Positions 34,055 to 44,712 of a stretch of DNA of 64,000 nucleotides are shown one piece after another. This DNA is from an uncultured bacterium (GTDB taxonomy: Bacteria; Krumholzibacteriota; Krumholzibacteriia; LZORAL124-64-63), in contig CAVSZB010000005.1 in the NCBI GenBank assembly GCA_963732385.1, forward strand, positions 96,001 through 160,000, written 5' to 3'. Each line of letters starts with the position of its first letter. Positions within the stretch are counted from its first letter, which is position 1. The notes beneath the pieces were generated by a model. That model worked only from the letters and a program-made list of their open reading frames with translations. It ran no database searches and had not been told where the DNA came from. The translations under genes and the position numbers were made by a program.

Positions 34055-36355
34055 ATGACATCCCGCTTCGTCACCCCGCCCCGCCCCGCCACTTTGCCGG
34101 CCCGGCGCCACCCCCCGCGCGCCGCGCGTCTGGCGACCGCGGTCGTCGTCGCGCTGGCGCTCCCGGGAGCCGCGCCGCCGTCACCGTCGGACGTCGCCCA
34201 GCGCTACCAGAACACCTGGGCCAAGGACTTCGTGATGGACGCCCCCTGGCGCGTCGTCAACGCAACCACGCCGATCCCGCTCCTGGTCGTCCTCAAGGAC
34301 TGCGAGGCGGACGAGATCGCCGCCCTGCGCTGGCTGCGCTGCCGCGACCTGACCGGCGGCGCCGCCGTCACCCTCTGGCTGCACGACGGGGAAGACGAGC
34401 GGATCGGCGACGACCCGCCCGAGCGTGACTGCTGCGCCTGGCTCACCACGGTCACCGAGGGCCATCCGGCGCTGCCCGACGGCACGCCGCTCACGCCGGC
34501 GAATCTCGGCTACCGGGCGGGCGACACCATCACCCTGGAGATGTCGATCCGCTTCCGCGACAACCTTTTGTGGGACGAGACCGCCACTCGCATCCTGCGC
34601 GTGCGCGTGGGCGACGGCCCGTTCCCCTGGCCGTCCGGCTGGCACGGCGGCGATCTCCACACCCATTCCATGTTCACGAACAACATCGCCGAATGGGGCG
34701 CCCCGCTGCCGGCGTTGCGCGCCGCGGCGACGGCGATCGGCCTGGGCTGGGTCGCCGTCACCGACCACTCCTGCGACCTGGACCAGACGGTTGACGGCCC
34801 GTGGTCCTATGTCACTCGGGAGTGGCAGTACACCGTGCAGACGCCGGCCGGCGAGCAGACTTTCACGCGCGACGTGTTCGCCAACGACGGCACGACCTGG
34901 GGCGGCCTCACCGCGGAGATCGCGTTGGCGGACGGCCCCGGGCTGCGGCTGCTGCGCGGGGTGGAGTTCAACCTCGCCTCGGTCGATCCCGCCACCGTCG
35001 GCCGTACGCTGCACGCCCTGTTCCTCGACGCCGGCTACCTCGCCTCGCCGTTGAGCGGTGCGCCGGGCGAGCGCCCCGTCTTCCCCACGGTGCCGGCCGG
35101 CCTCGACGCCCTCGCCGCCGCCGGCGGCTTCGCCTTCGCCGCCCATCCGTGGGACGACCTCGCCAGCGAATGGGCAGGCGTCGACCTCGGCGTCAACGGC
35201 GCCGTCTGGGGCGCCGGCGATTTCGCCGCCGCCCTGCCGCGCGACTGTCTTCCGCGGCGTGGAGCTGTTCAACACCCGCACCCTCGTCCGCTCGGACGAC
35301 GAAAACGATCCCTGGGCCGACTTCGGCGCCGGCCTCCCCGCCGCGAACCCCTACCCCGCCCCACTGCTGGCCGGCCTCGCGCTCTACGACGCCCTGCGTG
35401 CGCACCGGCCTTACCGGCTGGCCGCAGCGCCGCCTGTTCCTCGCCGCCGGCAGCGACGCCCACGGCGACTTCGACTACGCCACCCACCTCGGCCTCGACG
35501 ACTGGGCCGACGACAACGCCCTCGGCAGGGTCCAGACCGTGCTGCGCGTTCCTGGCCCCTGGGGCCCCGGCAACGCCCCCCCCGCCGCCGACCTCCTCGC
35601 CGCCCTGCGCGACGGCCATTCGCTCGTCACCGACGGACCGTTCCTCGAACTCGCCCTCGACACCGACCGCGACAACTCCCCCGACGGCCCCACCGACCTC
35701 CACCCCGGCGACGCCACCCGCGTCAACCCCGCCACCTGCCCCCCGCTCCTGCTGCGCTGGGCCTCCCTGCCGGAGTTCGGCCCCGTCGCCCTGGTCCGCC
35801 TCCTCGCCATCACCCCTACCGGCCTGTGCGAACTCGACACCCGCGACCCCCGCCTCACCGGCCAGGCCTGCGCCGGCTCCGCCACCGTCCTGCTGACGTC
35901 CCGCGGCCTGACCGGCCCGGTCGCCCTGCGCGCCGAACTGACCACCGCCGACAACGCCGCCGGCCACCGCGCCTTCACCAACCCGCTCTGGCTCGACTTC
36001 AACCCCATCATCGCCATCGACCCCACAGACCCCGCCGATCCCGGCGACCCCGCCAACGCCCCCCGCCCCGACGCCGTCCTGATCCTGGCCCCCGCCGCCC
36101 CCAACCCCGCCGTCGCCACCACCACGATCCGCTTCACCCTCGGCAAACCCGCCCCGGTCACGCTGACCATCCACGACCTCGCCGGCCGCCGCGTCCGCCG
36201 CCTGCTCGACGGCCGCCCGCTGCCTGCCGGTCCGCACACCGCCACCTGGGACGGGCGCAACGACACCGGCGCCCCGGTCGCCGCCGGCGTCTACGCTCGT
36301 CCGTCTCACTGCGGGTGGTCATCGGCGCGGAGGCTTGGTGCAGATATCGCGGTAA
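34055..36355 (+). pseudogene. PHP-fold (CehA/McbA-like) metallohydrolase with FlgD-Ig C-terminus, three frameshifts
   Basis: GDLHTHS, VTDHS, GVEFN and AAHP lie in the first frame. Shifts occur near 35245 (to FRGVELFN), near 35410 (to AGSDAH...PNPA..WDGRND..AAGVY) and near 36295 (to LVRLTAGG..VQISR*). Pseudogene or assembly indels. Confidence 0.75.
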
Positions 36356-36632
36356 TGGCGCCGCCCGGCGCGACCGTCTCCGCCGGCAGAAGAGCCCGGG
36401 TGCAGGGGACCCCTGGAGAGCGCGGCGCTGCGTCGCGGTTGACACGCTGGCCCGATTCCGCGACGATCACGACAGCCTGCCCCTCAATATCGACCTCGCG
36501 GTTGAGGGCGCGCTTTGCGCAGACAGTGCCAATGAGTTCGGCTGACATCGATGCCGCAGCGGGACAACCAGCCGTAATATTCTCCCGATACGCGTGTCGG
36601 CAGACCGGATCTCGGCGCGAGGTGACATCGCC

Positions 36633-37460
36633 TTGGCGGCTGAAGAGACCACAGATTCGGAAAACATCTTCCGCACCGAAGCCCTCGCGCACCGACGCCT
36701 GGGCGGCCGGCGGCAGGGCGATCTTTTGCGTCTGTCACCCGGCTGGATGGGCTGGACCTACCGCCTCATGCTGGGCTTCTTCGTGGCGGCCGTGCTGTTC
36801 CTCTGTCTGGGTCGAATGGACGAGTACGCCACCGGTCCCGCCGTCGTCCGGTGCAGGTTCATGACCGAAGTGACCAGCCCGGTTTCGGCCCTCGTGCAGG
36901 AAGTCCCGGTGATTCCGGGGACAAGAGTCAGGGCCGGACAACTCCTGGTGCGCCTGGGTGACGCAGGGCAGGTCACGGCCCCGACGGACGGTGTGATCCG
37001 GGACGTGCGCGTCCGCCCCGGCCAGTCGGTCACGTCAGGCCAGCCGCTGGTGACCCTCTCGGGGCCGGACAGCCAGCTGACCCTGATCGTCATGCTGCCC
37101 GGGGATTTCCGGCCGCAGCTGGCGATCGGCCAGCCGGGACGGTTCGAGGTTGCCGGCTACACCCGCCTGTACCAGTCCGTGGTTCTGAGCGGGATCGCCG
37201 ATGATCTTGTCGGCCCGACCGCGGCCGCCCGCTATCTGGGCCGGGACATGGCGAACGCCACCACGGCCGGCGGCCCGGTCGTGCTGGCGGAGGCCTCACT
37301 CGATGCGGAATCATTCACCGTCGACGGACAACGATACAATTTCGCGGACGGCATGCAGGGCCAGGCGCAGTTCCGGGTCCGCTCCATCCCCATCATCCTG
37401 AATCTTGTCCCGGGTCTGCGCGGCTTCTGGGAGGTGGGCAACCGTGGCGTCGCCGAATGA
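36633..37460 (+). CDS. HlyD-family periplasmic adaptor (membrane fusion protein), apparently lacking the alpha-hairpin
   Basis: TTG start after GAGGTG, IFRTEAL motif, one TM, two lipoyl half-motifs, a beta-barrel and GMQGQA. Overlaps the PCAT gene. Confidence 0.82.
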   Translation: MAAEETTDSENIFRTEALAHRRLGGRRQGDLLRLSPGWMGWTYRLMLGFFVAAVLFLCLGRMDEYATGPAVVRCRFMTEVTSPVSALVQEVPVIPGTRVRAGQLLVRLGDAGQVTAPTDGVIRDVRVRPGQSVTSGQPLVTLSGPDSQLTLIVMLPGDFRPQLAIGQPGRFEVAGYTRLYQSVVLSGIADDLVGPTAAARYLGRDMANATTAGGPVVLAEASLDAESFTVDGQRYNFADGMQGQAQFRVRSIPIILNLVPGLRGFWEVGNRGVAE

Positions 37461-39684
37461 AACGCCCCCACGCCGCCGGCGCCGCCTGCCGGGGCGTTTT
37501 CCGGCCCTGCTGCGTCTGCCGCGCGGCAGGAACCGCGGCAGGATTCCCTACATCCAGCAGAACACCGCCGCCGATTGCGGATCGGCCTGCCTGGCGATGG
37601 TGCTGGCCTACCACGGGCGAAAGGTGCGGCTCGACGTGGTGCGCGACAGCGTGGGCGCCGGGCGTGACGGCGCCAACGCGCTGGACCTGGTCCGGGCCGC
37701 GCGTCGTTACGACCTGCGGGGCCGCGGCGTCACGTTGGATCTCGCGGATCTGGACCGAGTGCCTCCCGCGTCGATCCTGCACTGGAGCTTCGATCATTTC
37801 GTCGTCTACGAAGGCCGCGACAAGCAGGGCATCCGGCTGGTGGACCCCGCCCTGGGACCTCGCCGCGTCTCCTACGAGGAATTCGGCCAGGACTTCACCG
37901 GCGTGGCATTGATATTCGAGCCGCTGGAGACCTTTGCCACCGGTCGGGACGCCGAACGCCCGGTCTGGGGTTATGTGCGCCGCGTGCTGACGCGCTCGGG
38001 ACTGTTGACCAGAATCGTCCTTCTGACCGCCATGGCCCAGATCATAGGGCTGGGGCTGCCCATCCTGACCGGCACGCTGGTGGACAGGGTCATCCCCCGG
38101 GGAGACCTCGGGCTGATGCAGATCCTGGCGGCCGGGTTCGCCGGACTGCTGGTCTTCAATTTCCTACTGTCCTGCCTGCGCGCCTTCCTCCTGCTGCAGC
38201 TGCGCACCGAACTCGATGCGCGCATGACGCTCGATTTCCTCGATCACATGTTCGACCTGCCCTATCCCTTCTTCCAGACGCGGTCCGCGGGCGACCTGAT
38301 CATGCGCCTGAACAGCAACTCCGTGGTGCGGGAGATCATCACCTCCAGCGCTCTGTCGGGAGCCCTGGACAGTGTCCTGCTCCTGTCCTACCTGGTGCTG
38401 CTGCTGCTGATCTGCCCGCTGCTGGGCGGACTCGTGCTGCTGCTGGGCTCCCTGAGAGTGGCGGTCTTCCTGGCCACCCGCCACAGGATCAGGAATCTGA
38501 TGACCGAGAACCTGGCCAAGGAGGCCCGGTCCCACGGCTACCAGGTGCAGATGTTCATGGGGATCGAGACGCTCAAGGCGGCTGGCGCGGAGCCCCGCGC
38601 GCTGAATCATTGGTCGCATCTGTTCGTCGACGTTCTCAACGTCAACATCAAACGCGGACGCCTCGACGCGCTGGTCCAGTCCGTCGTCGGCAGCCTGGGC
38701 TTTGCGTCGCCGCTCGTGATCATGCTCACGGGTGGCTGGCTGGTGATTCGGGGAGATTTGAGCCTGGGGACCATGCTGGCCCTCAACGCCCTCGCCCTGG
38801 GCTTCCTGACCCCTCTTTCCTCGCTGGTCAGCACCGCCTTGTCCTTCCAGCAGCTGGGCAGCTACGTCGACCGTCTCGACGACGTCCTGGCTACGCCCAG
38901 GGAGCAGGATCCCGACAAGGTCGTGAGCGCGCCACGGATCCGGGGCGGTATCCGTTGCGAGAATGTGATCTTCAAGTACGCGGTCAACAGCCCGCTCGCC
39001 ATCGACGACATCTCGCTGGAGGTGGCGCCGGGGCAAATGGTCGCCATCGTCGGGCGCTCCGCGGCGGGCAAGACCACTCTTGCCAATCTCATGCTCGGGC
39101 TGTACCGGCCGACCCAGGGACGCGTCCTCTACGATGGCATTGATCTGACCGGCCTGGAGGCCCGCAGTGTCCGATCGCAGCTGGGCGTCGTCACGCAGCA
39201 CACACACCTGTTCGGCGGATCCATCCAGGAGAACATCGCCCTGGCGGATCCGGAACTTTCCCGCGATGAGATTGAGGCCGCCGCCAGACTGGCCCACATC
39301 CATGAGGAAATCATGGCCATGCCGCTGGGCTACGACACGATCCTCTCCGAGGGAGGGCTGTCGCTGTCGGGCGGCCAGCGCCAGCGGATCGCCCTGGCGC
39401 GGGCGCTGGCCCGCAATCCGGCCATTTTGTTCCTGGATGAAGCCACGAGTTCTCTCGACGCCCAGATCGAGGCGAAGATCCAGGCCTCCCTGGCCGGGGC
39501 GGGCTGCACCCGCATCGTGGTGGCGCATCGTCTCAGCACGGTGCGGGACGCGAGCCTCATCCTCGTACTGGAAAAGGGCCAGCTCGTCGAACAGGGCACG
39601 CACGCCGAACTGATGCGAGCGAACGGCCTGTACGCCCAGCTCGTGCTGGCTCAGTCGTCGGGAGAGACGATCAGCAGGGCCTGA
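37444..39684 (+). CDS. Peptidase-containing ABC transporter (C39 PCAT, SunT/LagD type)
   Basis: C39 motifs QQNTAADCGSACLAM, HWSFDHFVV and VDPA. TMD followed by GRSAAGKTT, LSGGQRQR, LDEATSSLD and AHRL. GTG start after GGAGG. Confidence 0.94.
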   Translation: MASPNETPPRRRRRLPGRFPALLRLPRGRNRGRIPYIQQNTAADCGSACLAMVLAYHGRKVRLDVVRDSVGAGRDGANALDLVRAARRYDLRGRGVTLDLADLDRVPPASILHWSFDHFVVYEGRDKQGIRLVDPALGPRRVSYEEFGQDFTGVALIFEPLETFATGRDAERPVWGYVRRVLTRSGLLTRIVLLTAMAQIIGLGLPILTGTLVDRVIPRGDLGLMQILAAGFAGLLVFNFLLSCLRAFLLLQLRTELDARMTLDFLDHMFDLPYPFFQTRSAGDLIMRLNSNSVVREIITSSALSGALDSVLLLSYLVLLLLICPLLGGLVLLLGSLRVAVFLATRHRIRNLMTENLAKEARSHGYQVQMFMGIETLKAAGAEPRALNHWSHLFVDVLNVNIKRGRLDALVQSVVGSLGFASPLVIMLTGGWLVIRGDLSLGTMLALNALALGFLTPLSSLVSTALSFQQLGSYVDRLDDVLATPREQDPDKVVSAPRIRGGIRCENVIFKYAVNSPLAIDDISLEVAPGQMVAIVGRSAAGKTTLANLMLGLYRPTQGRVLYDGIDLTGLEARSVRSQLGVVTQHTHLFGGSIQENIALADPELSRDEIEAAARLAHIHEEIMAMPLGYDTILSEGGLSLSGGQRQRIALARALARNPAILFLDEATSSLDAQIEAKIQASLAGAGCTRIVVAHRLSTVRDASLILVLEKGQLVEQGTHAELMRANGLYAQLVLAQSSGETISRA

Positions 39685-39703
39685 CCCGCCGCCATGACCC
39701 CTG

Positions 39704-41215
39704 TCAAACCAATTGCATATTCCTGAGCCAGTCCAGGCCCTCGGGGCCGGCGTTTTTCATGGTCAGGTAATCCTTGAAGACCTGGTCCATTCTCGCGCGG
39801 GTCTGTTCGCACATCTGTTCGGAGATAACGATATCGGCGGTTCCATCGGCCTGCCAGTGGTCGGCCATGTGCACGAAGCAAAGACCGCAATGGCGAACGG
39901 CCCAGCACTTCCTGCAGCGTTCGGCCAGCGAGTCCACGAGCTTCTCGTAGAGATTGTGGATCATCGGCATGTCGAACCCGGAATCGAGATGGCCGATAAT
40001 CATGTTGTCGCCACAGCGCTCGCACGGCATCAGGGAGCCATCGACCTTGACGTGCACCTTCCGCTGGCCGGGGCGGCAGCATCCCGTGGGGAAAACCTCG
40101 TCGGGCAGCAATGTGCGCGACCGGTTATGATACAGCGTGAGTTCCTTATCGAACATGGCCCGCACGGGCCGGGTCAGCTTTTGGTGCTTGCCGGCGATGG
40201 AGGCATTCAGATACTGACGGCGAAGCTCCGCGAATTCGGTCTGGAATTTGTGATTGCTGTTTTCGTCCATATCCCTGGGCTTGAAATCAATCCCCGCAAC
40301 GTCGGCAAACTGCAAGCCGACGGCAGGCGGCTCCGTAATGTTCCATTTCTTGTAGACGGGAAAGTCCGCGAAGAAGGCCACGGTTTCCTTCACCTCATAA
40401 GGAGGCGCCATCACGGCGTTGAAGCGAATCCGCCTGTGGAAACCGGGATCCTGGCCGAGCAGCCGCTCCAGGCCGGCGATCACCTGATCGAAGCTGTCCT
40501 GGCCGCCCCGGGTCCTGCGGTACCGGTCATGGATATGCCGGGGGCCGTCCAGGCTGATCTGAACATAGAATTTTTCCTCGGCAAGGTAGGCCGCGACCGC
40601 GTCGTCGATCAGCACGCCATTGGTGTCCAGGTGGAGCTGAACCTCCCGATCCCCCTGCAGTGAACGCAGGCGAGCCACGATTTCCCGGATGAGGTCAAAG
40701 CGCAGAAGCGGCTCCCCGCCGTAGAAGGACACGACCGGGACTTTCTTCTCTCCATTGCGGGCCATGAAGAACTCGATGGCGTCCAGGGCCGTTTCCTGCG
40801 TCATGCTGGCGTCGTTATGGGCTCTGGTTCCGGTCTTGTTCCTGGTGTAGGGGCAGTATTCACAGCGGAGATTGCACTGCTCGGTGAGAGTCATCTGCAG
40901 GTGCTCGATGGCGGACTCGTAAAGACCGGAACCGCTGCAGCAGGCACATTCGTGGATGATTGTCAGATCCCTGGGCGCAAGCGCCTGTTCGGCGGCGTTC
41001 AGCTCCCTGATCTCCTCGAGCGCGGCCTGCACCCGCTCACGGCCCCATTTCCGGTCAGCTGCCTGGCGCTCGGGTCCATCGGTGACCTTGTTCCAGACAG
41101 GAGCCAGATCGGCCGACACTTCATCGCATTCATAGATGTGGCTGGTCGCGGTGTCGAAGCAGAACCACCGGCCGTCGTGTTCGAAGGTGTGGCACAATAC
41201 GGTCTCATGTCCCAT
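39704..41215 (-). CDS. Radical SAM/SPASM peptide maturase (Cys-rich-peptide CcpM-like)
   Basis: CNLRCEYC, SFYGGEPLL, DTNG and ISLDGP..HDRYR. SPASM region CCRPG.RK..V..DG..MPCERC..CRKCWAVRHCGLC..C. N-terminal RRE-like beta3-alpha3 segment. Confidence 0.9.
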   Translation of the reverse strand: MGHETVLCHTFEHDGRWFCFDTATSHIYECDEVSADLAPVWNKVTDGPERQAADRKWGRERVQAALEEIRELNAAEQALAPRDLTIIHECACCSGSGLYESAIEHLQMTLTEQCNLRCEYCPYTRNKTGTRAHNDASMTQETALDAIEFFMARNGEKKVPVVSFYGGEPLLRFDLIREIVARLRSLQGDREVQLHLDTNGVLIDDAVAAYLAEEKFYVQISLDGPRHIHDRYRRTRGGQDSFDQVIAGLERLLGQDPGFHRRIRFNAVMAPPYEVKETVAFFADFPVYKKWNITEPPAVGLQFADVAGIDFKPRDMDENSNHKFQTEFAELRRQYLNASIAGKHQKLTRPVRAMFDKELTLYHNRSRTLLPDEVFPTGCCRPGQRKVHVKVDGSLMPCERCGDNMIIGHLDSGFDMPMIHNLYEKLVDSLAERCRKCWAVRHCGLCFVHMADHWQADGTADIVISEQMCEQTRARMDQVFKDYLTMKNAGPEGLDWLRNMQLV

Positions 41216-41375
41216 CGTTGCTCCGCTTCTTCGGTGGCGACCGCATGATCGCCATCCTGCTGCATGTGGATTGATCCGTGTCAGGGCTCGCCCATTGTCC
41301 CGAGATGTCTGCGCCCTTCACCGTCCGCAGGGGGATTCCGCGGTATGGATGTGTCAGTTTTGCGTCAGGCAGCCA

Positions 41376-41403
41376 GCCGGCCCGGCGTGAACGCCGGGCC
41401 GGC
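41376..41403 (-). promoter_or_regulatory. Perfect GC-rich stem-loop between precursor and maturase
   Basis: GCCGGCCCGGCG-TGAA-CGCCGGGCCGGC forms a 12-bp perfect stem with no clear U-tract. Confidence 0.7.
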
Positions 41404-41483
41404 AGCGTCTGCGCACCTGCCTGGTCACCCTCGTGGCCGCAAGTGCGCGTCAGGACTTACACCTAGCGATTCACGAGGTTCGA

Positions 41484-41666
41484 CTAGGCATGGAAGTTGG
41501 TGGCGCTGACCGTGGCGGCAGCCTGATCCACCATAACGACGTAGTTTGTCGCGCCGTTGTTGAGTTCTGCGTCACAAGCGCAGATCTCGGGGCACACGCA
41601 CTTGCACCGAGTGTTGCCGGCGCCGGAAACTTCATTCAGTCTTTCGTCAGGAATCCGCTTGAACAT
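41484..41666 (-). CDS. RiPP precursor peptide, double-glycine-type leader with Cys-rich core (60 aa)
   Basis: GGAGG-N5-ATG start. Sequence MFKRIPDERLNEVSGA|GNTRCKCVCPEICACDAELNNGATNYVVMVDQAAATVSATNFHA. Co-oriented directly upstream of the rSAM gene. Confidence 0.85.
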   Translation of the reverse strand: MFKRIPDERLNEVSGAGNTRCKCVCPEICACDAELNNGATNYVVMVDQAAATVSATNFHA

Positions 41667-41729
41667 GATGTCCTCCATACTATCAGTGGGAAACACTATT
41701 GCCTCGAGAACCATTCCCGAGGCACGCAT

Positions 41730-41855
41730 GTTACTTTTTCAAATCGACTGCGGTCAGTCAAGAATGTATTCTCGATTATATTTATGTTGCCGTGTGCGAG
41801 AAATGTTGACTCGAATGCATTAATATATCCGGTCAAATCAATTGCGCTATAAACA
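41730..41855. promoter_or_regulatory. AT-rich divergent promoter region
   Basis: Perfect TATAAT on the minus strand at 41775-41780. Imperfect palindrome TCAAGAATGTATTCTCGA at 41758-41775. Inverted TTGAC..GTCAA at 41806-41836. Confidence 0.5.
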
Positions 41856-42031
41856 TGATCGTGTTGGCCGAGGCCATGCCATGTGGTAATATTTCTCCGT
41901 TGTCAGCGAGGCTCAGTTTAGAAATAATGCGGTTCGCGAGCGGCTCTCAGGGTGCATGGCTACAGACTGTCCGATTGCGGCGCGCCTGTCAGGCGCGCAG
42001 GGTCTCTGTGATGAATGCAGGAGGTTCATTC

Positions 42032-42958
42032 ATGTGGAAGTCGGCCGGCCTGATTCTCGCGTTCGCCCTGTGCGCCGGCTCGCCGGCTGATGCCGGGGCG
42101 GCTGACGGCGTCACGGTCACGCCCGATGTGGTCTACGGGCACAAGGCGGGGATGGCTCTCACCTTTGACCTCTTCCGTCCGGCGACGGCCAACGGCGCCG
42201 CGGTGATCTTCATCAACAGCGGGGGGTTCGTGTCGGGACAGCTCCGCCAGTGCGAGAGCACGGGGTGGGGCGTATGGCGCTTCGTGCCGGCCGCCGAGCT
42301 GCGCATCGCAGGCGTACCGGTGGCCCTGCCCGTGCTGGCGCAGTTCAGCTTCGGCCCCCTGCTCGACGCGGGGTTCACCGTGTTCGACGTCCGGCACGGC
42401 TACAGTTCAAGCTTCAAGCTCCCGGACATCGTCAGCGACGTTCGCCAGGCGGTCCGTTTCATCCGGGACAACGCCACGCATCTGGACATCGACGCCGACC
42501 GGATCGGTCTGTGGGGCGCGAGCGCCGGAGGATACCTCGCGCTCGAGGCCGCCCTCGCCGACGATGCCGGCCCCGGCCGGGTCCGCGCGGTGGCCGTGTA
42601 CTACCCGGCCGGCTTCGACCTGGCGGGCGACACGGTGCGCTTCCCGGAGCTGCTCGCCAACCTGCCCGCCCTGCAGATCGGCGCGGCGGTCCTCGATTCG
42701 CTGTCGCTGCGCCACTACGTCTCGCCCGACGATCCGCCCTGTCTGATCATCTTCGGAACCACCGACGCCCCGTTCATTACCGAGCCCAGCGACTCGCTGT
42801 GCGCCTCCCTGACCCGGGCCGGCGTCGCCTGCCGCCGCATCGCGATCCCCGGCACCGGACACGAATTCCGCGGCCCCGCCGGGTATCAGCCGGAGAACGG
42901 GGAACGGGCCGCGCGCGAAGTGGTGGCCTGGTTCAGGGAGCAGCTGACCGTCCGCTAG
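42032..42958 (+). CDS. Secreted alpha/beta hydrolase (esterase/lipase, BD-FAE-like)
   Basis: AGGAGG RBS, signal peptide, and SGGF, GASAGG, D and GHEF motifs. Confidence 0.85.
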   Translation: MWKSAGLILAFALCAGSPADAGAADGVTVTPDVVYGHKAGMALTFDLFRPATANGAAVIFINSGGFVSGQLRQCESTGWGVWRFVPAAELRIAGVPVALPVLAQFSFGPLLDAGFTVFDVRHGYSSSFKLPDIVSDVRQAVRFIRDNATHLDIDADRIGLWGASAGGYLALEAALADDAGPGRVRAVAVYYPAGFDLAGDTVRFPELLANLPALQIGAAVLDSLSLRHYVSPDDPPCLIIFGTTDAPFITEPSDSLCASLTRAGVACRRIAIPGTGHEFRGPAGYQPENGERAAREVVAWFREQLTVR

Positions 42959-43100
42959 ACGGACACAGCCGGTGCGGAATCGACATTGAATCCATTTTCA
43001 TATCGGCCTATCCTCCGCTCCGGAGGGTCCAGCGAGACATGTCCGCCTCCCTGCCGCTCCCGGAGGCGGACGGAATCGACCGGGAAGCAAGGGTGGCCCG

Positions 43101-44693
43101 ATGAAGATATTCCAGGTTGCCCCTCTCCTGCTGCTTGGCCTCGTTCTGGCAGACCCGGCCGCCGGGTCGGACGCCGCGACGGCCGAGCCCCAGTTCCTGG
43201 GCCGCTACCTCGTCACCACCGAGCAACTCCACGATGCAGACCGGGGCTACAAACTTGAGACCGTCTACCCCAGTCCGGACCGCAGGCGGGTCGCCGCCGT
43301 TTTCGTCGGCAACAACGCCCAGGGCTACGTCTGGGTCGAGGGGCAGGGCCAGAGCCCGCTGTGGGATTACGTGATCGCCGTCGAATGGAGCCCCGACAGC
43401 CGCCGCCTCGCCTACCTCGCGACCAGCGGCGGCAAGGTGCATGTCGTGGTCGATGGGGTCGACACCGGGAAGTACGACTCTGTGCCAGGAAAAACCGTTC
43501 CTTTCAGCTCCGACGGCAGCCGTTACGGTTTTCTGGCGGCCGAACTCAAGAAGAACCAGATCAAGTCCGTGCGGGCGGTCATCGACGGTACCGCAGGCGA
43601 GTCCTTCGACAATGTGACCGGCCCCAAGCAGGGGCCCCTGCTCCGCTTCAGCCCTGGCGGGGCTCACTGGTTGATGTTCGCCAGGAGGGGTGATCAGTAT
43701 TTTGCGGTCGTCGACGGCCGCATCGGCCCCTCTTTCGACCACACCGCCGGAGATCCGGTCTGGTCGGCCGACGGCGAGCACCTGGCCTACGTCGGGGTCC
43801 GCGGGGAGGACTGGTACCTGGCCCACGACGATTCCCTGCACGGCCCCTTCCCCTGGGTCTGCGACCCGGTCTTCTCGCCCGTCTCGAACGACCTGGCCTA
43901 CTGCGTGAACGAAGACGAGCAGGGCTACGTCGCTTTCAACCACCGGCCGTTGGGCCGGCGGTATTACAGGGTTCGCGGGCCGGTCTTCAGCCCCGATGGC
44001 CGCCGTCTGGCCTATTGGGCCAGCCGGCCGCCCGAAGGGTCCTGCGTGGTCGTCGACTCGACGGCCGGACCGATTCTGCCCTCGGCGGCCGGGCCCAGGT
44101 TTACCGAGCACGGCCTGCTCTTCTACGACGCCTACCTCGACTCCACCGGCACCCGGCGCGTGTTCTTCGTCGAGAACCGCCGGCTGCCGGAGATGTCAGG
44201 CAGCTTCGCCTCCCTCCCCCTGGCCAAAGGGACGGGCTCGGTGTCCGGGCTCTGGCTGAACACCCCGCCCGACGGCAGCCGCATGGCCTACGGCTGGCGG
44301 GTGGACGAGTGGACCTTCAACGTGGTGGTCGAAGGGGAGCAGTGGTCGGGATTCCTGGCCGATCCGGTCGAATGGGGCAACGACGGCGAGCACTACGCCT
44401 TCCGCCTCATCGTCCCCAAAAAAGGCGACCGCGTCATCATCGACGGCGACGAGGGGCCGCTCTACAAGAGCGCCCTGGGAGTTCGCCTCAGCCCCGACGG
44501 CAACGAGGTCGCGTACATCGCGTCGCACAAGGACAAGGGCGATGAGAGACTGGTGATGAACCGCGAGGAGGGCCCGCCCTGGGACGGCATCGTACCCGGG
44601 ACGGTGCACTTCCAGCCCGACGGTTCGCTGATCCACTACGCGATCGATGCGCCGGACAAGCTGTTTCGGGTCGTGTTGACTCCGCGCGAGTGA
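43101..44693 (+). CDS. Secreted TolB/WD40-like beta-propeller repeat protein
   Basis: Signal peptide and repeated (W/F)SPDG..LAY....VVVDG..G..YD units. Confidence 0.8.
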   Translation: MKIFQVAPLLLLGLVLADPAAGSDAATAEPQFLGRYLVTTEQLHDADRGYKLETVYPSPDRRRVAAVFVGNNAQGYVWVEGQGQSPLWDYVIAVEWSPDSRRLAYLATSGGKVHVVVDGVDTGKYDSVPGKTVPFSSDGSRYGFLAAELKKNQIKSVRAVIDGTAGESFDNVTGPKQGPLLRFSPGGAHWLMFARRGDQYFAVVDGRIGPSFDHTAGDPVWSADGEHLAYVGVRGEDWYLAHDDSLHGPFPWVCDPVFSPVSNDLAYCVNEDEQGYVAFNHRPLGRRYYRVRGPVFSPDGRRLAYWASRPPEGSCVVVDSTAGPILPSAAGPRFTEHGLLFYDAYLDSTGTRRVFFVENRRLPEMSGSFASLPLAKGTGSVSGLWLNTPPDGSRMAYGWRVDEWTFNVVVEGEQWSGFLADPVEWGNDGEHYAFRLIVPKKGDRVIIDGDEGPLYKSALGVRLSPDGNEVAYIASHKDKGDERLVMNREEGPPWDGIVPGTVHFQPDGSLIHYAIDAPDKLFRVVLTPRE

Positions 44694-44712
44694 CCGGATT
44701 CCGGCCGGGGCA

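Follow-up and report, generated by a model that had tools for sequence, protein, structure and literature searches.

A radical SAM/SPASM maturase with a double-glycine cysteine-rich precursor and a lanthipeptide-type exporter in an uncultured Krumholzibacteriota bacterium

Introduction

Does an uncultured member of the Krumholzibacteriota (lineage LZORAL124-64-63; GenBank assembly GCA_963732385.1) encode a full route to an exported, thioether-crosslinked peptide? The question is raised by four genes within a 64,000-nucleotide stretch of contig CAVSZB010000005.1 (positions 96,001 to 160,000 of the forward strand; hereafter the window, whose numbering is used throughout). They encode a small cysteine-rich precursor, a radical S-adenosylmethionine (SAM)/SPASM maturase, an HlyD-type adaptor and a peptidase-containing ATP-binding cassette transporter (PCAT). 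A preliminary description, made from the letters of the window, read them as a complete and self-contained pathway for a ribosomally synthesised peptide with post-translational modifications (RiPP). The anatomy of the genes, their conservation and their recurrent linkage are what is observed. Judged from sequence, they probably form a patchily distributed or mobile cassette that makes, crosslinks, trims and exports a thioether peptide of 44 residues.

Results

A double-glycine precursor beside the maturase gene

The gene layout stands as first described: all four open reading frames (ORFs) are present, the precursor and maturase genes on the minus strand converge on the adaptor and PCAT genes on the plus strand, and 19 nt separate the stop codons of PCAT and maturase (Table 1). 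The precursor leader ends in LNEVSGA at residue 16, with the predicted Gly-Ala cleavage site at residues 15–16 as had been proposed, and is followed by a core with five cysteines. It agrees with the recognition pattern of C39 peptidases set out in the excerpt of PMC6363468 (a double-glycine (GG)-type ending of Gly-Gly/Ala/Ser, with hydrophobic residues at −4, −7 and −12), these positions being filled by Ile5, Leu10, Val13 and Gly15-Ala16. Among 1159 small ORFs genome-wide (30–100 aa, ATG behind a Shine-Dalgarno sequence), four have a GG-type motif and one has CxCxxxCxC; only the precursor combines the two, so it is not a chance ORF. It is also the sole match when its own genome (G000; other genomes and loci carry G and L labels) is searched with a precursor profile. 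A longer reading of 81 aa from position 41729 was discarded, having no Shine-Dalgarno sequence and homologues that begin at the second methionine.

The same profile matched three of 208 genomes of the phylum, namely G000 (one copy), G008 (three) and G087 (five, two of them cut by contig ends), which had also supplied part of it. Across 11 precursor representatives from the library search, three of which were query sequences, the leader is 16 aa long in every one, and Gly(−2) and CxCxxxCxC are each kept in ten. No NCBIfam precursor model matched any of 13 aligned precursors, and the claim that the core is unlike any characterised RiPP holds in that no characterised family matches.

A maturase clade outside the curated families

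The maturase has a RiPP recognition element (RRE) at approximately residues 8–76, a CxxxCxxC motif at Cys114/118/121 and a SPASM domain with Cys380/398/434/437/443/446/469, spaced C-X12-G-X4-C-X35-C-X2-C-X5-C-X2-C-X22-C. The seven SPASM cysteines are conserved in 78 of 78 clade members. An AlphaFold2 model (mean predicted local distance difference test score of 96, from a 93-sequence alignment) predicts three strands and three helices for residues 8–76, as in a winged helix-turn-helix RRE; the solved fold closest to the model is CteB (5WHY/5WGG; E 1e-21, 19% identity). Hidden Markov model (HMM) searches against NCBIfam fell below every cut-off: CcpM (TIGR04068), 266.5 bits against 500; RumMC (NF035951), 241.8/720; lachnocin, 195/550; TIGR04148, 180.1/300; PapB, 148/340; and SCIFF, 139/425. 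All of the best-scoring models describe maturases of Cys-rich peptides. The nearest database proteins are 45–49% identical and annotated CcpM approximately 26%. By these comparisons the protein is a radical SAM/SPASM RiPP maturase of a new clade outside every curated family.

Might the enzyme catalyse some other radical chemistry, such as epimerisation or the formation of C-C or ether links, leaving the CxC cysteines free or metal-binding? The missed cut-offs would allow it, CxCxC runs can bind metals, and the candidate acceptor residues, Ala39 excepted, are poorly kept across the 13 aligned precursors; the (G/D)-A-x-(N/S)-(Y/F) stretch at G38–Y42 persists in eight of them, behind a loop of variable length. 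We nevertheless regard other chemistry as improbable, given that the best HMM matches and the best fold match are thioether-forming or Cys-rich-peptide enzymes and that Cys spacing is the most conserved feature of the core in both sub-clades described below.

A CACC cluster was noticed at maturase residues 90–93 (approximately 40937–40948, minus strand), in the linker between RRE and barrel; this linker has at least two cysteines in 16 of the 78 clade members.

An intact PCAT with a hairpin-less adaptor

Peptidase (PF03412, C39), membrane (PF00664) and ATPase (PF00005) domains of the PCAT all score above the Pfam cut-offs. The C39 catalytic residues Cys45, His118 and Asp134 are intact, as the preliminary description had stated, together with Gln39, and so are Walker A, the signature, Walker B/D-loop and the H-loop; this is the only PF03412 match in the genome. 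The adaptor has one transmembrane segment, lipoyl and β-barrel parts, and an HlyD_3 match above the Pfam cut-off. Alignment to the G008 and G022 orthologues reveals that its α-hairpin, some 49 aa between the lipoyl halves, is missing in frame. The loss is greater in G087, and one lanthipeptide-linked adaptor of G062 also lacks the hairpin; BesA is a known adaptor of this kind (excerpt of PMC3807786). TolC-family channels are encoded elsewhere in the genome (18 PF02321 matches in nine ORFs, none in the cassette). With the hairpin lost and these genes outside the cassette, calling the export route complete was an overstatement.

The exporter appears to have been recruited from a locus for class I lanthipeptides. 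Any match to the window's C39 domain was found in 12 of 91 family genomes, and the closest PCATs are those of the other genomes with GG-type precursors (81% and 68% identity over the C39 domain). Together the three PCATs make up a clade (support 100) that falls among those of loci with LanB and LanC, both of which are present at seven of seven checked loci of the surrounding PCAT clade, G008 included; a tblastn search of G000 with LanB, LanC and LanA of G008 returned no match. Beside the adaptor gene lies what remains of a second one, a stub that shares 63% identity over 38 aa, and 73% at the DNA level, with an intact G008 gene. The missing hairpin, this stub and the lanthipeptide origin had escaped the preliminary description.

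These remnants prompt a less favourable interpretation, in which the export half is what is left of a lanthipeptide locus in decay, and either does not secrete the modified peptide or is part of a cassette that is altogether silent. The truncated second adaptor, the deleted hairpin and an adaptor-upstream region much shorter than in G008 fit decay, as does the single precursor, compared with two at the closest G008 locus and at least five copies in G087. Both exporter ORFs are nonetheless intact, with dN/dS values against G008 of 0.15 (PCAT, 84% identity) and 0.32 (adaptor, 70%); the hairpin was lost cleanly and in frame, the G087 adaptor is even shorter, and the GG leader is retained across precursors. 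Contigs of sediment run X1, approximately 90% alike, span the stub/adaptor junction. They also cross the site of hairpin loss, though narrowly, the shorter side having just over 30 letters. This disfavours an assembly error. Decay is accordingly a poor prospect in our estimation.

Recurrence in other genomes

All three of the 208 genomes with GG-leader CxCxxxCxC precursors also hold a maturase of the clade and a closely related PCAT, and in two other genera such a maturase again occurs with a GG precursor, an adaptor and a PCAT. In G087, precursor copies lie at the end of the maturase contig, and a second contig (5.8 kb) begins with precursor copies followed by a divergent short adaptor and a PCAT, with no lanthipeptide gene; the two contigs are likely adjacent.

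Several observations weigh against a thioether-forming and exporting cassette. The link from precursor and maturase to PCAT in G087 crosses a contig break. In G008, a LanB/LanC/LanA locus separates the maturase from the adaptor and PCAT, approximately 12 kb away, and since this PCAT lies inside the lanthipeptide locus it need not serve the Cys-rich peptide; another G008 maturase (contig C17) accompanies a GG precursor of only two cysteines, with no PCAT in the 13.6 kb examined. In the window, the adaptor has lost its TolC-docking hairpin and the second adaptor is a stub; the cassette lacks an immunity gene, and its core peptide is acidic, with a net charge of −2. The chemistry, finally, is transferred over a long distance from CcpM and CteB.

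The lanthipeptide locus that adjoins the GG-clade maturase in G008 (L088; C4, 250000–269500) is of class I, with LanB, several LanC-like genes and eight GG-leader LanA-like precursors.

An ECF-linked sister system

A full-length maturase match was found in 55 of 91 family genomes, and the 56 matches besides the window's own were all retrieved; outside the family, a query with the SPASM part matched two of 117 genomes. In a FastTree phylogeny built from 157 sequences after the removal of 14 duplicates and short fragments, a GG clade of seven (support 1.0) is sister to a clade of 71 (0.98), and the two are joined with one further protein at 0.998. The GG clade is not nested within the larger one; as the tree gives sisters, it favours no direction of change between the sub-clades.

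The pairing of radical SAM enzyme and Cys-rich peptide extends well beyond the window: a similar CxC peptide adjoins the maturase in 52 of 56 homologous loci, two of the four misses being contigs shorter than 4.3 kb. A lack of such neighbours, named in the preliminary description as grounds for rejecting its reading, is not what the loci show. Missed by the preliminary description was the sister system. In 49 of 53 non-GG loci a putative anti-sigma gene lies within 3 kb of the maturase (the exceptions being three contigs shorter than 4.3 kb and one outlying CcpM-like enzyme), and in most loci of the large clade an extracytoplasmic function (ECF) sigma gene adjoins it. The anti-sigma label derives from position and topology: the protein lies beside a sigma gene and has N-terminal helices and one hydrophobic, presumably transmembrane, segment. 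One of 16 such proteins matches CnrY, weakly (E 0.007), and a fold search returned generic helix matches only (best Z 5.5). A profile built from the maturase neighbours matched 62 of 91 genomes. It hit 51 of the 52 with a non-GG maturase and none of the three with a GG one; the remaining 11 came from the 36 with no full-length match to the maturase, two of which had matched the SPASM query. Given its construction and the relatedness of the genomes, these counts are no independent statistic.

The peptides of the two sub-clades begin with a shared pattern of five to seven residues: Met, a hydrophobic residue or His, a charged residue, mostly Lys/Arg, a hydrophobic residue and, at position 6 or 7, an acidic one. 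A GG motif precedes the first cysteine in none of 48 non-GG peptides (one per locus, chosen by eye from regular-expression candidates). Many ECF-type peptides end in a DING-like motif, and 0 of 30 matched an NCBIfam model. Word counts made to find a promoter common to 25 ECF-type peptide genes, in the sequence upstream of each, mostly reflected how closely the loci are related and were set aside.

Two neighbourhoods recur among the ECF-type loci, one near what we take to be a PrkA/YeaH/SpoVR-like operon (L031–L034, L040, L098) and one near presumed UbiD/UbiE/UbiX/UbiA-like genes (L027, L029, L036–L039, L100); this suggests vertical inheritance. Variants include L180 (G082), with two tandem anti-sigma-like genes between peptide and ECF sigma, and L237 (G142, of another family), where maturase, CxCxC peptide, ECF sigma and anti-sigma-like gene share one contig. 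A separate CcpM-like maturase (327 of 500 bits) occurs at L041 (G012 C5), where four Cys-rich precursors accompany it and the ABC transporter has no C39 domain.

Surroundings of the cassette and signs of mobility

At the corresponding sites of the same-genus genomes G001 and G002 the cassette is absent and both flanks are collinear; unrelated genes occupy approximately 1 kb in G001 C25 and G002 C11 and 2.9 kb in G002 C17. G002 is 62% complete, yet its flanks sit on single contigs; its C11 and C17 carry two divergent copies of the flanking region (93% and 87–89%), possibly from a mixed bin. In these relatives (L090, L091, L092) the site equivalent to 36358–44712 holds genes that we take to be a HicAB-like pair, MBOAT-like genes or a secreted protein, and an esterase (42011–42958) and a PD40 protein (43101–44693) of the window are missing from two of the three sites; the site is a variable hot spot. 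The identity of the PCAT to its G008 counterpart compares with 65–83% for four neighbouring core genes, consistent with exchange. Simple deletion of a G008-type island was rejected as the origin, because the orientation of the maturase and the side on which the precursor lies are different; it is also countered by a maturase identity of 49% to G008, far from the value for the PCAT.

The maturase and precursor genes have GC contents of 0.60 and 0.57, compared with 0.67–0.69 for the contigs. A search around the cassette for repeats and terminal repeats found nothing meaningful, and a scan for sigma-70-like sites found one where 0.9 were expected, which is not significant. Scans of JGI metagenomes with a SPASM alignment and a degenerate precursor pattern gave no matches; in a scan of genome contigs for maturase relatives, the matches listed were mostly distant radical SAM genes.

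Table 1 Features of the cassette and its immediate surroundings (window coordinates)
Feature	Position	Strand	Details
Second periplasmic adaptor, truncated remnant	36432-36545	-	Whole gene in related lanthipeptide loci
HlyD-type adaptor gene	36633-37460	+	275 aa, TTG start
PCAT gene	37444-39684	+	746 aa, GTG start behind GGAGG
Radical SAM/SPASM maturase gene	39704-41215	-	503 aa
Stem-loop, precursor/maturase gap	41376-41403	-	12-bp perfect GC stem; z -4.7, 0/200 shuffles
Precursor gene	41484-41666	-	60 aa, ATG 5 nt behind GGAGG
Predicted 44-aa core	41487-41618	-	C21-x-C23-x-C25-xxx-C29-x-C31, two ATN(Y/F) stretches (precursor numbering)
16-aa leader	41619-41666	-	N-terminal M-F-K-R-I-x-D; Ile(-12), Leu(-7), Val(-4), Gly(-2), Ala(-1)
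Stem-loop, presumed 5' untranslated region of precursor	41700-41724	-	z -5.5

Hairpins like that in the precursor/maturase gap also lie 3' of the precursors at the G008 and G087 loci; it probably stabilises or attenuates the transcript. Among the cassette genes there is no TolC, immunity or regulator gene. Upstream, the gene at 34055–36356 is split into at least three frames by small indels, where the G002 orthologue is a single ORF of 765 aa; sequencing error or recent decay may account for the splits.

Discussion

Proposed pathway and product

In the pathway we favour, the precursor would be made in excess from a precursor–maturase transcript, and the maturase RRE would bind the first residues of the short leader, whose residue 5 may double as position −12 for the C39 peptidase. 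The maturase would then attach the sulfurs of the CxCxxxCxC cysteines to carbon atoms further along the core, so that a nested thioether hairpin forms with up to four or five bridges, each costing 2 Da. The calculated monoisotopic mass of the core before modification is 4574.02 Da; at 2.016 Da per bridge, four bridges would lower it to 4565.96 Da and five to 4563.94 Da. Candidate acceptor zones are G38–Y42 and S54–F58. The excerpt of PMC8188230 gives a precedent in RumC, where a CxC pair is bridged to acceptors four residues apart (Glu31-Cys24 and Asn35-Cys22); by analogy, C31 and C29 could pair with G38–Y42, and C25, C23 and C21 with later residues. Linkage at C-alpha is slightly favoured over C-beta or C-gamma, and alpha and beta linkage are both possible because Asn is a known β-thioether acceptor (NxxcA; excerpt of PMC8326336). 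The motif match predicts that the PCAT cuts after Gly15-Ala16 and, powered by ATP, drives the core through the inner membrane. Served by an adaptor that lacks its hairpin, the peptide would get at least as far as the periplasm; passage through TolC is uncertain.

What the product would do is harder to say. A competition or antimicrobial peptide, suggested by the patchy occurrence and the diversified precursor arrays, is our first choice at a little under even chances. Signalling ranks behind it but is a serious candidate; an acidic core, a missing immunity gene and a sister system tied to ECF sigma speak for it. One specific form of it keeps the chemistry and export proposed here and makes the product a periplasmic or kin-cell signal inherited from ECF signalling. 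The one-segment anti-sigma-like partner and the neighbouring ECF sigma of the sister loci favour this idea, and so does an adaptor without its hairpin. The GG-type genomes, however, have no anti-sigma-like gene and hence no evident cognate receptor, ECF-type peptides have no export signal, and patchy, diversifying arrays suit competition peptides; we hold an inherited signal to be unlikely, at perhaps one chance in a few. Also unlikely, at similar odds, is a scheme spanning both sub-clades. In it, the lineage-wide maturase, CxC peptide, ECF sigma and membrane anti-sigma would constitute a signalling circuit whose thioether-crosslinked peptide governs the ECF pair or is governed by it. The cassette of the window would be a sister branch that swapped the regulator for a lanthipeptide exporter by way of a double-glycine site on the RRE-binding N-terminus, with one 16-residue leader read by two enzymes and periplasmic delivery through the hairpin-less adaptor.

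Thioether RiPPs have been characterised mainly from Gram-positive bacteria, and the loci described here define one maturase clade and two precursor families, all new, from a diderm lineage that is mostly uncultured. Solving the product would broaden thioether chemistry and make it easier to predict whether enzymes near CcpM and RumMC form alpha or non-alpha linkages, and the pair of sub-clades offers a natural example of how a leader is re-fitted and an exporter captured. That more than half of the family genomes have the sister locus points to a regulatory rather than an antibiotic role for such peptides. Most surprising to us were this family-wide ECF-linked system and what appears to be the capture of an exporter from lanthipeptide loci, both of which lie outside the interval first singled out in the window.

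Comparison with known systems

CcpM/CLI_3235 (Clo7bot) gives the best full-length HMM match and likewise has a Cys-rich precursor upstream of the maturase; the window enzyme reaches about half the cut-off and is distant in identity. The reference locus (L235) has a TIGR04066 protein and an S8 protease, neither of which is among the cassette ORFs; the window instead has a GG leader, PCAT and adaptor, and its precursor matches neither the CLI_3235 family nor any other NCBIfam precursor model. The excerpt of PMC10731318 places an ECF sigma in the cluster of SacP23, a CcpM-type system.

RumMC of Ruminococcin C also matches over its full length and shares the order of RRE, radical SAM and seven-cysteine SPASM domains and a CxC donor pair near the core start. 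The SPASM motif given for RumMC in the excerpt of PMC8188230 resembles the window spacing and is not identical to it; further differences are the missed cut-off, the GG-type leader and the placement of the window cysteines in one block rather than two hairpins. C-alpha linkage is a RumC feature. CteB/SCIFF is the closest solved sequence and fold, an RRE-TIM-SPASM thioether former, at an identity as low as stated above and with both SCIFF and PapB scores well under their cut-offs. Freyrasin has a regular CX3D pattern, which is absent from the window core.

On the export side, the leader positions and Cys-His-Asp triad conform to double-glycine/PCAT pairs, from which cleavage is predicted by motif. 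In canonical tripartite (ColV-type) type I export the adaptor hairpin docks TolC, whereas here the hairpin is missing. Class I lanthipeptide loci from the same class of bacteria have a GG leader, a PCAT and two adaptors, and include the source clade of the window exporter; LanB, LanC and LanA are theirs and have no counterpart in G000.

The excerpts of PMC11361885, PMC9902471 and PMC10885120 mention neither the maturase clade nor the ECF-linked module, and no paper on either was found in a literature set poor in subscription papers (supplements of Hudson 2019 and of Clark and Seyedsayamdost 2022 may list such loci). The nearest system in layout is the GG-Bacteroidales type (TIGR04148/TIGR04149), a diderm arrangement of radical SAM enzyme, GG precursor and PCAT with or without adaptor; radical-SAM-only clusters (BGC1–2) with GG leaders, PCAT and adaptor appear in the excerpt of PMC10352776. 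The top ESM Atlas match of the precursor falls in a TIGR04149 cluster (0.87), which we take as a lead only. The window differs from these clusters in a maturase below the TIGR04148 cut-off, a precursor without a TIGR04149 match, another core motif and another lineage. The suggestion of an undescribed system thus holds in part: no characterised family matches, while the layout has been described in silico for Bacteroidales and modelled as TIGR04148. At the family level the cassette is undescribed; its architecture is an ordinary one, known from Bacteroidales.

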